DNA of 64,000 bases from Acidimicrobiales bacterium (GTDB lineage: Bacteria > Actinomycetota > Acidimicrobiia > Acidimicrobiales > Aldehydirespiratoraceae), in NCBI GenBank assembly GCA_029247365.1, contig JAQWLJ010000002.1:73111-137110 (forward strand), in the 5' to 3' direction. The translations under genes and the position numbers were made by a program. Positions 7,384 through 12,404 of this stretch are shown in pieces (position 1 is the stretch's first letter; each line of letters starts with the position of its first letter). The notes below the pieces were generated by a model. The model saw only the letters and a list, made by a program, of their open reading frames with translations. It did no database searches and was not told the origin of the DNA.

Positions 7384-8262
7384 ATGGCAAATTCTCCGGC
7401 CGATGCCGTTTCAGAGCTGCGTGACCGGCTCGGTCGCGGCGTTCGCGCACTGTTGGCCGGTGACCCCGAACCCCGGGCGTTGCCGCCTCTCGACGACGAC
7501 CGACGCTTCCCGCCGACGTCTGCCATATGGGCGGTCCACAGCGATGCCGCCATGCTCGTTGGCGGGCTACGAGCACTATTGCTCCAGACCTTGCATCCAC
7601 CGACACTGGCAGGCGTCACCCAACACTCCACCTACCGCACTGATCCGCTCGGACGCCTCCAACGCACGGGTTCGTTCGTCGGAACCACCACATTTGGTTC
7701 CCGAGCCGAGGCCGACCAGGCGGTGGCGGTCGTACGTGCCGTCCACGAACACATCGTCGGTACGACCACCACCGGAACGCCGTACGCGGCGACCGATCCA
7801 CATCTGCTCGCCTGGGTCCACTGCACCGAAGCCGACAGCTTCCTGCGCGCCCGTATGCGCTACGGCGCCGAACCACTCGCTCCCGGCGTGGCCGATCGCT
7901 ACGTTGGCGAGATCGGCGAGATCGGCGCCGAGCTGGGCGTGATCGACCCACCGCAGAGCCGACAGGAACTCCGGGTACGTCTTCAGAGCTACCGGTTGGA
8001 GTTGGCGACGTCTGCCGACACCCACGAGACCGTGCGTTTCCTCACCTTCCCACCCCTGTCGCTGGGAGCTCGGGGTCCGTACGGCGTTGTCTTCGCTGCC
8101 GCAGCCTCGATGCTGCCTGGCTTCGCGCGGCGCCAACTGCGCCTGCCCCTCCTGCCGCTGGCAGAGCCACTCGCGATTCGGCCAGCTGCCACGTTGCTTC
8201 TTCGCACGATCGGTTGGGCGCTCGGTGAACACCCTGCCCGCGCCGCAGCCCAAGACGCCTGA
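7384..8262 (+). CDS. MpaB/DUF2236-family (haem oxygenase-like) protein
   Basis: Start set at ATG 7384 because the tracked 6685 start runs antisense through nadC. GGLRALLLQTLHP, RTGSF..TTFG and DPHLLAWVH blocks recall DUF2236. Confidence 0.6.
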   Translation: MANSPADAVSELRDRLGRGVRALLAGDPEPRALPPLDDDRRFPPTSAIWAVHSDAAMLVGGLRALLLQTLHPPTLAGVTQHSTYRTDPLGRLQRTGSFVGTTTFGSRAEADQAVAVVRAVHEHIVGTTTTGTPYAATDPHLLAWVHCTEADSFLRARMRYGAEPLAPGVADRYVGEIGEIGAELGVIDPPQSRQELRVRLQSYRLELATSADTHETVRFLTFPPLSLGARGPYGVVFAAAASMLPGFARRQLRLPLLPLAEPLAIRPAATLLLRTIGWALGEHPARAAAQDA

Positions 8263-8276
8263 CTACGATCGCCGGC

Positions 8277-8528
8277 ATGGAACTGGCCGAACTGCAGCGG
8301 TTGATGGAAGAGCTCTACGGCGAAGCCGACCGCGAACGCGGCATCCCCTCGACCGTTGCCTGGCTGGCCGAAGAACTCGGTGAACTGGCCCAAGCAGTCC
8401 GCAAGGGCACCCGCGAACAACAAGTTCACGAGTTCGGCGACGTGTTGGCTTGGCTTGCGTCGCTCGCAAACCAGATGGACATCACCCTCGACGAAGCGAT
8501 GCAGCGCTACGTCGACAACCCGCCCTAA
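8277..8528 (+). CDS. MazG-like nucleotide pyrophosphohydrolase domain protein
   Basis: 83 aa. EELGELAQAV and EFGDVLAWL helix pairs resemble the small MazG family. Confidence 0.7.
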   Translation: MELAELQRLMEELYGEADRERGIPSTVAWLAEELGELAQAVRKGTREQQVHEFGDVLAWLASLANQMDITLDEAMQRYVDNPP

Positions 8529-9679
8529 CTGGCGCCCAGCCGCTGGGCCGCCCAGCGAGCAAAGTGGTGCGACGTTGCGTCCATCACTTCAGAGAAGCGG
8601 CCACCGTCGAACGCCGGTGAATGACGGCCACGCTGCATACCTTCGACCACGGCAAGGTCCTCGGTGAAGACCTCCTTCCACGCCTCGGTGCGCTGTGCTC
8701 GAACGGTGGCCATGTCGGCCGACAGTGCCCGCTCATCGAAGTAGTAGATCTGCAGGACGTCGATGGATCGGTCAGGAGTGATGGGTTCGATCCGCCGGGT
8801 CCAGAAGTGATCGCACTGCAAGCCGAGGAACAGGTTGGGGTAGAGCGTTGGGTACTCGGCCGACAACCCCGGCCAGCCGTCGATCACCGAGAACGCGTCG
8901 CCCGTGATCGACTTGTGGTCGTAACCGCGCGTGATCTGGCCAGCGAACCCGTCGCCGAAGAACATCTCGTGCTCCTCGAGTGGCGACAGTGCTGCGAGGT
9001 TCGGATGGACCCACGGAAGGTGATAGGCCTCGAGGTTGTTCTCGACGCACAGCTTCCAGTTCCCCTGGAACGCGAAGGAAAGTGTCCCGAGTTCGGTGTC
9101 GGCGTGCATACGGTCAAACCACACGGGATCGGCCAGCGAGTCGAGGCGGGCTTGGAGTGGCGCAATGAACTCGTTGAACGGTGGAGCGTCTGCGGAGACG
9201 TTCACAAACACCTGATCGAGCCAGACGGCCGAGCGGGCCGGCACGAGGCCGCACGAAGCCGGGTCGATCGACTCGAGGTGATGCACACCCGGGCCACCGA
9301 CATGTGGGGTGGCCCGCAGGTCTCCCTCAAGCCCGTACGTCCAGGAGTGATAGGGGCAACGGATAGCGCCGCCGGCATTGCCGGCAGCGCCCACCAGTTC
9401 ACTGCCACGGTGTCGGCATACGTTATGGAACACGTTGATGCGACCGTCGGCGGAGCGCACCAACACGAGGGGCGCGCCCAGCCACGAAACCGGGCGGACG
9501 TCGCCGAGGCGAGGGATTGAAGAACCGGTGCCGACACAGACCCAGGTCGGGCCGAATACGTTCGTCCGCTCGTGTTCGAGAAACGCCGGGTCGACGTACG
9601 CCCGGTTGGGTAACGCCGCCGCAGTAGCCGTCGGTCGATCGATCGACGCAACCTCGTCGTTCGTGAGCCCGATGCTCAC
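8525..9679 (-). CDS. Rieske non-haem iron oxygenase, alpha subunit
   Basis: CRHRGSEL..CPYHSWTY Rieske motif plus a NNLEAYHLPWVHP mononuclear-iron motif. GTG 9679 overlaps the upstream stop (GTGA). Confidence 0.85.
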   Translation of the reverse strand: MSIGLTNDEVASIDRPTATAAALPNRAYVDPAFLEHERTNVFGPTWVCVGTGSSIPRLGDVRPVSWLGAPLVLVRSADGRINVFHNVCRHRGSELVGAAGNAGGAIRCPYHSWTYGLEGDLRATPHVGGPGVHHLESIDPASCGLVPARSAVWLDQVFVNVSADAPPFNEFIAPLQARLDSLADPVWFDRMHADTELGTLSFAFQGNWKLCVENNLEAYHLPWVHPNLAALSPLEEHEMFFGDGFAGQITRGYDHKSITGDAFSVIDGWPGLSAEYPTLYPNLFLGLQCDHFWTRRIEPITPDRSIDVLQIYYFDERALSADMATVRAQRTEAWKEVFTEDLAVVEGMQRGRHSPAFDGGRFSEVMDATSHHFARWAAQRLGAS

Positions 9680-10281
9680 GCCAACCCAATCGCCTCCCCG
9701 GGGCAAAGGTGCACCGGGTCGAAAGCGGGTCGAGCGAAGACCTCGGTCAGCTCGGGACGAAAACGTTCCATCGAGTCGGCCTCGTAGCCGGGGTCAAAGC
9801 TGACCTGGTCCCAGCGAGCGCAGAACATCGCAGCTGCGTCGAAGTGCGGATGAGCACGGAACGTCTCGCGCGCGTCGGGATCGGTCCCATTCATGGGGCC
9901 GGAATGGTGCTGTTGAAAAATCGGGTGGTGGGCGACGACCCACGTGACCTCCTCGCGCACGAATGGACGAATGATCTCGGCAGCCATGCGGCCATGGTTC
10001 ATTGGCGAGAGCGCGTCGCCGATGTCGTGCAGCAAGGCTGCGACGATCCAATCGGCATCGGCACCGTCGCGCCGGGCCCGCGTCGCCGCCTGCAGAGCGT
10101 GCTCGCAGCGATCGATTGGATAACCCGAAGAACGTTCGTGGCGTTGGGCCTCGAGCGCTGCGATGTAGCGGTCAGGCGATTCGGTCATATACGGCTCGAA
10201 CTTGCGGGCGAGGAGGTCGTAGTCAGCCTTCGTGCCTGCGTCCATGCGGGTGAAAGAAACGGTCTCGTTGGACGTGGTCAC
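9676..10281 (-). CDS. HD-domain protein, PhnZ/TmpB-like (possible diiron oxygenase)
   Basis: 201 aa. CEHALQAATRA..GADADWIVAALLHDIGD, NHGRMAAEI, VVAHH and ARWDQ blocks. The GTG start overlaps the upstream stop. Confidence 0.65.
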   Translation of the reverse strand: MTTSNETVSFTRMDAGTKADYDLLARKFEPYMTESPDRYIAALEAQRHERSSGYPIDRCEHALQAATRARRDGADADWIVAALLHDIGDALSPMNHGRMAAEIIRPFVREEVTWVVAHHPIFQQHHSGPMNGTDPDARETFRAHPHFDAAAMFCARWDQVSFDPGYEADSMERFRPELTEVFARPAFDPVHLCPGEAIGLA

Positions 10282-10715
10282 GGCGATACACCTAGGACCC
10301 GGGTCGGCTCAACGAGGACCGCAACGCGGCCCTCAGCGGCCATCACGCGGTCGTATTCGTCCCAGTCATCGTGACTCCCGCCCGCCGCGACAAACACGCG
10401 TCGCAAGAACAGGGCCAGGCCGACGTCACCAGCCGTCGCACCAGAATCGATGACGGTCGCCGGGCCCTCAATACCCGCCCAACGCCAGCCTCGCCGAAAC
10501 GTGACGGAGAGCCGGCCGGTACGCCGCACATAGCCGAGCTTGGCCGAGTCGTCCCGCACGACAAGTCCAATGCACTCCACCCCAGTGACGGGGTGCGCAA
10601 TAGGGCCTGCGTTGACGACTGAGGCATGCGCAGAGCCATCGGGACGCGTTGTAGCGACGACACAGAGTCCGACCTCTTCGGCGGCGAAGCGCCGCACATC
10701 TTCGAATGTGGCCAT
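10278..10715 (-). CDS. Pyridoxamine 5'-phosphate oxidase-family (flavin/F420-type) protein
   Basis: 145 aa. The N-terminal GLCVVATTRPDGSAHASVV strand pattern is typical of the PPOX split barrel. Confidence 0.6.
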   Translation of the reverse strand: MATFEDVRRFAAEEVGLCVVATTRPDGSAHASVVNAGPIAHPVTGVECIGLVVRDDSAKLGYVRRTGRLSVTFRRGWRWAGIEGPATVIDSGATAGDVGLALFLRRVFVAAGGSHDDWDEYDRVMAAEGRVAVLVEPTRVLGVSP

Positions 10716-10757
10716 CTGCGGAGGCTAGGCCAGGAACGCCGAGCGGTCAGCCTCTGA

Positions 10758-11882
<1,125 letters not shown>

Positions 11883-11906
11883 TCAGAAGCCGGAGTGTCC
11901 CAGACG

Positions 11907-12404
11907 TCAGCCCATCTTGGCCGCACAGCTCACTGGCGGGTCATCGATGAAGCGGCCGCCGCAGGTGTTGCCGAAATCCTCATATCGGCTGTTGAACGGC
12001 GAGGTGAGGTACAGGTCATCGCAGGCGGCGCCGTCTCCGTCTCGGCACGACTCAAACATGGCGTCAAGTTCCGGATCGTCCCCATAGTCGTCGACCGCCG
12101 CACCGCTGCCGCCGATTCCGGCATCGTCGACGACGCCCTCCTGCATCTCGGCGAGGTCCATGCCTAGGAAACACGCAGCGGTGATCTCCAGAGCTTCGAT
12201 CGGTGGGTCGTCGTCACCCAGGTTTTCATCGGTCAGGTCAGCCGGATCAATCCCGGCTTCTTCGAGGCCATCGATGGTGCAATCGGCCTGTTCCTCGCTG
12301 AACCCATCGTCGATCAACGAGTCGCGGAATTGCTCCTCGGTGGAGCTACATGCTCCGGACAAAAGGACGCCGATTGCGGCGATCAGAAAAAGGCGGCGCT
12401 TCAC
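11907..12404 (-). CDS. Acidic Cys-rich lipoprotein, function unknown
   Basis: Signal peptide MKRRLFLIAAIGVLLSGAC with a lipobox. The mature part is very acidic and contains several Cys residues. Confidence 0.55.
   Translation of the reverse strand: MKRRLFLIAAIGVLLSGACSSTEEQFRDSLIDDGFSEEQADCTIDGLEEAGIDPADLTDENLGDDDPPIEALEITAACFLGMDLAEMQEGVVDDAGIGGSGAAVDDYGDDPELDAMFESCRDGDGAACDDLYLTSPFNSRYEDFGNTCGGRFIDDPPVSCAAKMG

Follow-up and report, generated by a model that had tools for sequence, protein, structure and literature searches.

The 64-kb window analysed here, from contig JAQWLJ010000002.1 of an Acidimicrobiales bacterium (assembly GCA_029247365.1), carries a gene for an HD-domain protein that is joined by a four-nucleotide (4-nt) overlap to a downstream gene for the alpha subunit of a Rieske non-haem iron oxygenase. 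The HD protein is very likely a diiron oxygenase belonging to a new sister family of PhnZ and TmpB, and the HD-Rieske pair is real but narrow, being found in one clade and in four genomic contexts. The two enzymes probably share a pathway in this clade. Within such a pathway the Rieske enzyme is tentatively taken to act on a betaine-type compound that is either produced in the HD reaction or a precursor for it, and this placement ranks above the order in which it would fill the slot of the usual hydroxylase. A prediction made earlier from the sequence alone had described a PPOX-like gene, the HD gene and the Rieske gene as an operon for a possible two-oxygenase cleavage pathway; what it observed is confirmed, and its interpretation is partly supported.

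In the proposed mechanism, the HD enzyme would break an adjacent C-X bond in a four-electron oxidation with O2, at a mixed-valent Fe(II)/Fe(III) site. Its usual partner would be an upstream-encoded Fe(II)/2-oxoglutarate (Fe/2OG) hydroxylase, either of the PhyH type or resembling TmpA and butyrobetaine hydroxylase. No gene for such a hydroxylase lies beside the HD gene in the window genome, where a putative PhyH counterpart is unlinked, on contig C15. In one clade, which comprises the window organism, at least three other sampled lineages known from metagenome-assembled genomes (MAGs) and metagenome contigs, and one secondary loser, the HD gene has become translationally coupled to the gene of a group V Rieske monooxygenase that lies downstream. 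This enzyme would draw electrons from a reductase encoded elsewhere, for which there is a candidate on contig C25, and would act by oxidative N-demethylation, or by oxidation, on a betaine-like compound, either a product of the HD reaction or a precursor for it. Homology, ligand conservation, fold, synteny patterns and gene coupling are directly observed here; the oxygenase activity, the sequence of steps, the class of substrate and the partners encoded in trans are inferred from them.

The HD protein as a relative of PhnZ and TmpB

The HD protein matches the Pfam HD model (30.9 bits), and its top NCBIfam matches are Phn-HD (TIGR03276, 40.6 bits), TmpB (NF049941, 31.7 bits) and PhnZ1 (NF052439, 30.3 bits). 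These matches are local and N-terminal only, and lie below the curated cut-offs of 214.6, 300 and 300 bits, respectively; scores so far under the cut-offs rule out canonical PhnZ or TmpB membership, and family members from other phyla likewise fall short of the PhnZ, TmpB and PhnZ1 cut-offs. Significant sequence matches in the PDB are limited to PhnZ, followed by TmpB, in both phmmer and profile searches (PhnZ 5.6e-6 by phmmer). Across 28 family members the six predicted diiron ligands (H61, H85, D86, H96, H119 and D158) never vary, and the alignment of these members has 48 invariant columns and a mean column identity of 62%. In the HMMER alignment H34, H58, D59 and D161 of PhnZ correspond to H61, H85, D86 and D158, and in an hhalign comparison with 14 TmpB-like proteins drawn from Rhodobacteraceae genomes (probability 97.9%, 139 columns) all six ligand positions are matched by HD ligands.

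An AlphaFold2 model of the HD protein, built with 28 homologues, has a predicted local distance difference test score (pLDDT) of 94.9. The top ten Foldseek matches of this model in the PDB are all PhnZ or TmpB, with E-values of 7e-7 to 4e-5, template modelling (TM) scores of 0.58-0.72 and 174-187 aligned columns; the best is PhnZ 4n6w (E 7e-7, TM 0.65/0.72), and TmpB reaches 1e-5. The next match, the HD domain of the CCA enzyme, stands at 1e-2, four orders of magnitude weaker than the best, and is followed by MIOX at 0.18 and by the SAH/RelH alarmone hydrolases and PPX/GppA at 0.2 or worse. The original prediction had recognised PhnZ and TmpB in the blocks EH, LHDIG, NH, HH and RWD, and had proposed a comparison with PhnZ, TmpB and MIOX and a count of the metal ligands. 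These blocks are all present and are invariant across the family, all six ligands align, and the protein groups with PhnZ and TmpB rather than with nucleotidases or (p)ppGpp hydrolases, as had been anticipated.

Alternatively, the HD protein could be an ordinary dinuclear metal-dependent phosphohydrolase or phosphodiesterase, as the database annotation of its family ('predicted HD phosphohydrolase') would have it. Diiron HD hydrolases, among them YqeK (PMC8177086), share the H..HD..H..H..D motif, which is therefore necessary but not sufficient for an oxygenase, and in one locus (L096) a Metallophos gene follows the HD-Rieske pair. However, the structural matches to hydrolases are not significant, those of the oxygenase PhnZ being stronger by far (E above 0.2 versus 7e-7), the only solved structures related by significant sequence similarity are the oxygenases PhnZ and TmpB, and a hydroxylase gene directly upstream of the HD gene, which recurs in the family as described below, is a hallmark of oxygenase pairs. 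A hydrolase is thus considered very unlikely.

The family search returned 1,986 clusters at E<=1e-3, and members are present in at least 588 GTDB species genomes, mainly of marine Alphaproteobacteria with some Gammaproteobacteria and Actinomycetota; full-text searches on HD oxygenases yielded no paper on the family. Neighbourhoods were counted at the 80 best loci of the family from species genomes. A PhyH-family Fe/2OG gene lies immediately upstream of the HD gene on the same strand in 20 of the 80, usually less than 50 nt away, and a TmpA-like gene is directly upstream in another five (Caulobacterales, Hellea and Marinicaulis). All 25 of these Fe/2OG partners are thus upstream on the HD strand, an arrangement that provides the strongest support for a role in which a substrate is hydroxylated and then cleaved. 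This agrees with the statement in the original prediction that the hydroxylase partner in known pathways is an Fe(II)/2OG enzyme, which holds for all four known oxidative C-P pathways (PMC10574752). The TmpA-like partner scores 328 bits against NF049936 (cut-off 400), and 224 bits against the TmpA entry in the PDB versus 114 against butyrobetaine hydroxylase. The PhyH partners match no phosphonate-hydroxylase model; their best PDB match, 6zyk, was deposited merely as an uncharacterised 'Monooxygenase', and no relevant paper was found in the literature for PDB 6ZYK/6ZYL. Some genomes with a solo HD gene carry a PhyH orthologue elsewhere (49-50% identity). Other recurrent neighbours are amidase genes (four loci), divergent arginase-family genes (four loci), and creatinase/M24, LysR and Opp-type transporter genes. 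On a TARA contig (L099:1397-6615), a solo HD gene follows a Gln-synt_C gene of the gamma-glutamyl-amine ligase type, with two arginase-family genes and one for a class III aminotransferase close by; for part of the family, this context may point to substrates of the guanidino or polyamine type.

MIOX, PhnZ (along with the variants PhnZ1 and PhoF), TmpB and SmaX, which has one iron, are the only HD-domain oxygenases characterised so far (PMC12186529, PMC10574752), and a 2025 paper counts as HD oxygenases only MIOX, PhnZ, TmpB and its own SmaX (PMC12186529). PhnZ (PDB 4MLM, 4MLN and 4N6W), which acts with PhnY* in the oxidative 2-aminoethylphosphonate pathway, is the best match of the window protein by both sequence and structure, over 178-187 aligned columns, but the two are only 22% identical. 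PhnY* is a PhyH-family protein, like the commonest partner of the family described here. TmpB from Leisingera caerulea (PDB 6NPA/6NPB) is an (R)-1-hydroxy-2-(trimethylammonio)ethylphosphonate oxygenase whose partner is TmpA. It resembles the window protein in its HD fold, its length of about 200 amino acids (aa) and its six diiron ligands in register, and the TmpA-like genes at the five loci above recall its pairing, whereas the identity is about 21% and the partner in the window is a Rieske gene downstream rather than an Fe/2OG gene upstream. Two loops of the HD protein are shorter than in the TmpB-like proteins, by 11 and about 17 residues in the hhalign alignment. A Lys that is conserved in TmpB-like proteins four residues after the fifth ligand is replaced in the family by an invariant Gln (Q123), and an Arg that is conserved in TmpB-like proteins and PhnZ three residues before the last Asp is replaced by A155, where the family consensus is Glu; we take the Lys and Arg to be phosphonate contacts in PhnZ (K108 and R158). 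PhnZ and TmpB are further defined by a transient YxxE loop (Y24/E27 in PhnZ, Y30/E33 in TmpB; PMC8177086), but the HD protein has S51 at the Tyr position, which is variable in the family, and Y54 at the Glu position, which is Tyr or His. All these points of difference hold for PhnZ as well as for TmpB.

The SmaO/SmaX system, which converts Asp to aminomalonate in peptides that are made on the ribosome and modified after translation (RiPPs), likewise combines Fe/2OG hydroxylation with a subsequent four-electron oxidative cleavage by an HD-type enzyme, and SmaX extends HD chemistry beyond C-P bonds to the C-C bonds of alpha-hydroxy carboxylates (PMC12186529). SmaX acts on a peptide through a single iron held by two His and one Asn, whereas the window protein retains the complete set of six diiron ligands and no RiPP context is seen for its family. 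With both cationic residues lost, and with SmaX as a precedent for C-C cleavage, a non-phosphonate alpha-hydroxy acid is conceivable as the substrate of the family, while the TmpA-like partners leave room for a phosphonate. A more specific proposal, which is judged unlikely, is that the family consists of C-C cleaving diiron oxygenases for cationic alpha-hydroxy carboxylates and not for phosphonates, and that the Rieske enzyme then demethylates a glycine betaine-like product; hydroxylated beta-alanine betaine, carnitine-type acids or guanidino acids may be the substrates. If this were true, the family would provide a new and widespread oxygen-dependent route of marine osmolyte breakdown and the first HD oxygenase with a Rieske partner.

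The family keeps its full diiron site while being partnered with three kinds of oxygenase (PhyH-type, TmpA-like and Rieske), and its spread among marine bacteria equals that of many named catabolic enzymes. Its substrate, once found, would define a new reaction in marine carbon, nitrogen or phosphorus cycling. Finding it would also correct 'phnZ-like' counts in ocean metagenomes, in which sister families of this kind can be taken wrongly for phosphonate degradation, and the coupling to a Rieske gene offers a compact two-gene entry point toward the substrate.

The HD-Rieske pair and its genomic contexts

The HD-Rieske pair occurs in four gene contexts. The first, asd-PPOX-HD-Rieske-MazG, is that of the window and of one related locus (L004/L005). 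In the second (L095), the pair lies between an AMP-ligase gene and a flavodoxin-like reductase gene; in the third (L096), the order is CN_hydrolase-HD-Rieske-Metallophos; and in the fourth (L097/L098), it is TauD-HD-Rieske. The fourth context, on a metagenome contig (L097:5136-7727; also L098), consists of three different oxygenase genes in a row, and its TauD-family protein, which resembles taurine dioxygenase, scores 238 bits against NF007104 (cut-off 313). The Rieske proteins linked to the pair are 52-83% identical to that of the window, compared with about 30% for the ten other Rieske paralogues of the genome. On a maximum-likelihood tree, the Rieske-linked HD proteins form one clade (support 95/67), which joins a solo sister pair with 100/100 support and is nested among PhyH-linked HD proteins. 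No pairing of a group V Rieske enzyme with an HD oxygenase was found in the literature searched.

Beyond the adjacent pairs, two Puniceispirillales MAGs (L081/L086) carry a 40%-identical Rieske gene 2.4 kb from the HD gene, and the L081 genome holds the HD gene together with this Rieske orthologue close by and a PhyH orthologue of 50% identity. In the genome of L007, one of the solo sisters, a 44%-identical Rieske gene is unlinked to the HD gene. In this gammaproteobacterial MAG, the Rieske gene is divergent from a PhyH gene at a distance of about 260 nt (G460:C315:12349-14378). Any Rieske gene is present at only three of the 80 proteobacterial HD loci, and the absence of a Rieske orthologue from the 300 other Acidimicrobiia genomes sampled marks the coupling as a narrow lineage trait.

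The original prediction had proposed neighbourhood conservation of the three genes as a check. Such conservation is seen for the HD-Rieske pair across its four contexts but not for the PPOX-like gene, which is present only in the window and at the one related locus, and synteny of the whole trio breaks down at a close relative (L001). There, an HD gene whose product is 87% identical to that of the window lies in the same asd...MazG frame, but the PPOX-like gene is replaced by 99 nt and the Rieske gene by 133 nt, with no remnant homology in either, and the L001 genome contains no Rieske orthologue (best match 32%). The more distant L004 keeps the trio, so the state of L001 is a secondary double loss, which hints that the PPOX-like and Rieske genes go together and which makes the HD enzyme independent of the Rieske enzyme.

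This clean loss of both flanking genes suits an explanation in which the adjacent genes belong to no common pathway: the HD enzyme would act on its own or with partners encoded elsewhere, and the Rieske and PPOX-like genes would be insertions that are easily lost. Most members of the HD family are solo genes among unrelated housekeeping genes, and the absence of the Rieske orthologue from other Acidimicrobiia points the same way. On the other hand, translational coupling is suggested by the 4-nt overlaps, that between HD and Rieske being found also in L004, L095 and L097; the orthologous pair survives at least three rearrangements of its flanks; and the HD gene and the Rieske orthologue co-occur without being adjacent in L081/L086 and in the L007 genome. 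Independent neighbours are therefore considered quite unlikely, and a shared pathway in this clade is preferred.

The Rieske oxygenase and its proposed place in a shared pathway

The Rieske protein matches the Pfam Rieske (64 bits) and Ring_hydroxyl_A (106 bits) models, and both of the metal motifs that had been read from its sequence are complete. The cluster ligands C88/H90 and C108/H111 and the mononuclear iron ligands H220, H225 and D341 are all invariant in 121 homologues, the bridging carboxylate E217 is conserved in them too, and E217/H220/H225/D341 correspond to E205/H208/H213/D323 of carnitine monooxygenase CntA. CntA (6y8j) is the best PDB match, with an E-value of 8e-32 and a nearly end-to-end alignment, followed by 9o71 and 7yls, whose PDB entries describe nothing more than a Rieske-domain or ring-hydroxylating dioxygenase subunit, and then by the Stc2-type demethylases 3vca and 4qup. 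The best NCBIfam match is GbcA (NF058607), with 120 bits against a cut-off of 670 and only residues 10-229 aligned; every curated cut-off is missed by a wide margin.

Group V Rieske enzymes are oxidisers of quaternary amines and split into clade Va, which has an aromatic residue at position 203 (CntA, choline monooxygenases and OxyBAC; C-N cleavage or choline), and clade Vb, which has Asn at this position and contains the oxidative demethylases GbcA/BmoA and Stc2 (PMC7948474). The window protein has N215 at the position of CntA Y203, and this Asn is invariant in the 121 homologues. Like CntA (carnitine), GbcA/BmoA (glycine betaine) and Stc2 (stachydrine), it is an alpha-only enzyme of about 385 aa with a Rieske cluster, a bridging Glu and a 2-His-1-Asp site; unlike CntA, it lacks the Cys pair by the iron site, having A218 and L221 in place of C206 and C209 (numbering by offset from the 6y8j chain). 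It is thus predicted to be a group V enzyme of the Vb type on the basis of N215 and gene context. The gene context is that of homologues at about 50% identity, of which three were read: two adjoin GCV_T, DAO or Oxidored_FMN genes, which are the usual company of methylated-amine catabolism, and for the third (L125) there is no GCV_T, and a DAO gene lies at a distance of about 2.8 kb. The nearest solved relatives of the Rieske protein (CntA) and of the family's TmpA-like partner (TmpA and butyrobetaine hydroxylase) all act on quaternary ammonium substrates.

In contrast to the CntB/GbcB-type systems, the window Rieske gene has no reductase gene next to it; neither a beta subunit nor a ferredoxin gene adjoins it in the window, and the window's sole Fer2 match is NuoG, at a distance of about 30 kb, so that the lack of an adjacent electron-transfer partner had been described correctly. 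A candidate reductase with FAD_binding_6, NAD_binding_1 and C-terminal Fer2 domains is encoded on contig C25, and with 11 Rieske matches in the genome a shared reductase of this kind is plausible. The 3.1-Mb genome is unusually rich in oxygenase genes, with 11 Rieske alpha-subunit, 16 PhyH and 20 TauD-family matches. Among the 16 PhyH genes, C15:28975-29706 is the top match for all 20 of the HD-linked PhyH proteins (33-43% identity), and it is conserved in the four other searchable genomes of the HD clade, with identities of 82% (L001), 63% (L095), 58% (L096) and 47% (L007). It is divergent from an amidase gene. The surrounding region (C15:21000-37000; L122) contains creatinase/M24, two PhyH, Amdase-type racemase/decarboxylase, amidase, Oxidored_FMN+Pyr_redox and PEP-mutase-family genes; it resembles an island for the breakdown of a small nitrogen-rich compound, and the HD enzyme's true partner may be encoded there.

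The original prediction had put the Rieske oxygenase in the slot of the hydroxylase. In that order, it would replace the Fe/2OG enzyme and make the alpha-hydroxy substrate that the HD oxygenase cleaves, giving a self-contained two-oxygenase pathway. The HD and Rieske genes are indeed tightly coupled, and an adjacent Fe/2OG gene is absent from three of the four contexts of the pair. A hydroxylase is to be expected, given that the HD family is paired with hydroxylases elsewhere, and the nesting of the Rieske-linked clade among PhyH-linked HD proteins would fit a swap of partners. However, the Rieske gene lies downstream of the HD gene, whereas every one of the 25 Fe/2OG partners lies upstream, and L097 has a TauD-family gene upstream in addition to the Rieske gene. 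The L081 genome combines the HD gene with both a Rieske and a PhyH orthologue, the candidate PhyH gene is retained in every searchable genome of the HD clade, and L001 retains the HD gene without the Rieske gene. N215 is the signature of the Vb demethylases. Known group V reactions, such as those of CntA, GbcA, Stc2 and choline monooxygenase, proceed through unstable hydroxylated intermediates that collapse, and do not yield stable alcohols. The hydroxylase slot is therefore doubtful for the Rieske enzyme.

An order in which the Rieske enzyme acts on a betaine-type compound, either formed in the HD reaction or a precursor for it, is tentatively favoured instead, in view of the enzyme's downstream position, the Vb Asn, the methylamine contexts of its homologues, the TauD-HD-Rieske locus, the genomes with PhyH, Rieske and HD genes together and the retained PhyH gene on C15. 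TmpB yields glycine betaine, on which the Vb enzymes GbcA and BmoA act, and this connection, together with the instability of group V intermediates, raises the rating of this order further.

Several observations weigh nonetheless against the preferred explanation as a whole. A Rieske orthologue (E<=1e-70) is found in 0 of the 300 other Acidimicrobiia genomes sampled, 115 of which have HD-family matches, and about two thirds of the 80 HD loci have no hydroxylase gene within 6 kb. The C15 PhyH protein is only 33-43% identical to the HD-linked PhyH proteins, so its orthology is uncertain. The six-ligand motif, being common to dinuclear HD hydrolases, is no proof of oxygenase chemistry, and the YxxE loop of PhnZ and TmpB is kept in neither the HMMER nor the hhalign alignment of the HD protein. 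The Vb assignment of the Rieske protein comes from one signature residue and gene context, while its best full-length PDB match, CntA, belongs to clade Va, and its GbcA score is far under the cut-off.

Layout of the locus and accessory genes

The three genes lie on the minus strand of the window and are flanked by asd and by a convergent MazG-like gene (Table 1). Both GTGA overlaps had been noted in the original prediction and read as described: the window has cgccGTGAccac at the PPOX-like/HD junction and ggcGTGAgcat at the HD/Rieske junction. An alternative in-frame TTG start at 9706 would extend the Rieske protein to 393 aa, but its homologues begin at the overlap instead. The asd gene is 42 nt upstream of the PPOX-like gene on the same strand, and in L001 and L004 it is likewise found on the HD gene's flank; it is a conserved flank that probably lies outside the three-gene unit. 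The stop codon of the MazG-like gene overlaps that of the Rieske gene by 4 nt (8525-8528), and the gene occupies the same position in L004, where the Rieske gene is present, and in L001, where it is absent, and is thus also a conserved flank. Promoter and terminator scans of 8100-12100 revealed no promoter-like or terminator-like site.

Table 1. Genes and gene junctions at the HD-Rieske locus, numbered along the whole 64-kb window
Feature	Position	Strand	Product or type	Remarks
PPOX-like split-barrel protein	10278..10715	-	145 aa, ATG start	PNPOx_N and TIGR03618 matches
HD-domain protein	9676..10281	-	201 aa, GTG start	PhnZ/TmpB sister family
Rieske non-haem iron oxygenase alpha subunit	8525..9679	-	384 aa, GTG start at 9679	
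PPOX-like/HD junction	10278..10281	-	GTGA stop/start overlap	direct sequence reading
HD/Rieske junction	9676..9679	-	GTGA stop/start overlap	direct sequence reading; 4-nt overlap also in L004, L095 and L097
asd (aspartate-semialdehyde dehydrogenase)	10758..11867	-		NF011456, 490 bits; context only
MazG-like protein, convergent	8277..8528	+	83 aa	Pfam MazG, 43.7 bits; context only

The PPOX-like protein scores 75.9 bits against TIGR03618 (cut-off 79.05) and 24.2 bits against PNPOx_N, both just below the cut-off, and among PDB entries it is closest to Rv1155 (E 1.3e-6). Genes for CofD (313 bits) and for ten TIGR03618-type paralogues are present in the genome, and these features together make an F420-dependent oxidoreductase plausible; judged from its sequence, the protein is probably a split-barrel oxidoreductase of the FDOR-B/Rv1155 type. 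The gene is missing from L001, L095, L096 and L097 and is found only in the window and L004/L005. A conserved PPOX-HD-Rieske trio is accordingly rejected, and the PPOX-like gene is a lineage-specific, recent and dispensable addition rather than a conserved part of the unit.

Two further HD paralogues with 37-38% identity are encoded elsewhere in the genome, at C9:36851-37405 (L100) and C4:73556-74092 (L101), and it is to such paralogue subfamilies that the HD matches in 115 of the 300 other Acidimicrobiia genomes belong. The two paralogues were rejected as tightly hydroxylase-coupled systems, the PhyH and TauD genes in their vicinity being 2-3 kb off among unrelated genes. An argument from phosphonate transport was likewise set aside: a PhnD-family binding protein is encoded on contig C13 and is uninformative either way.

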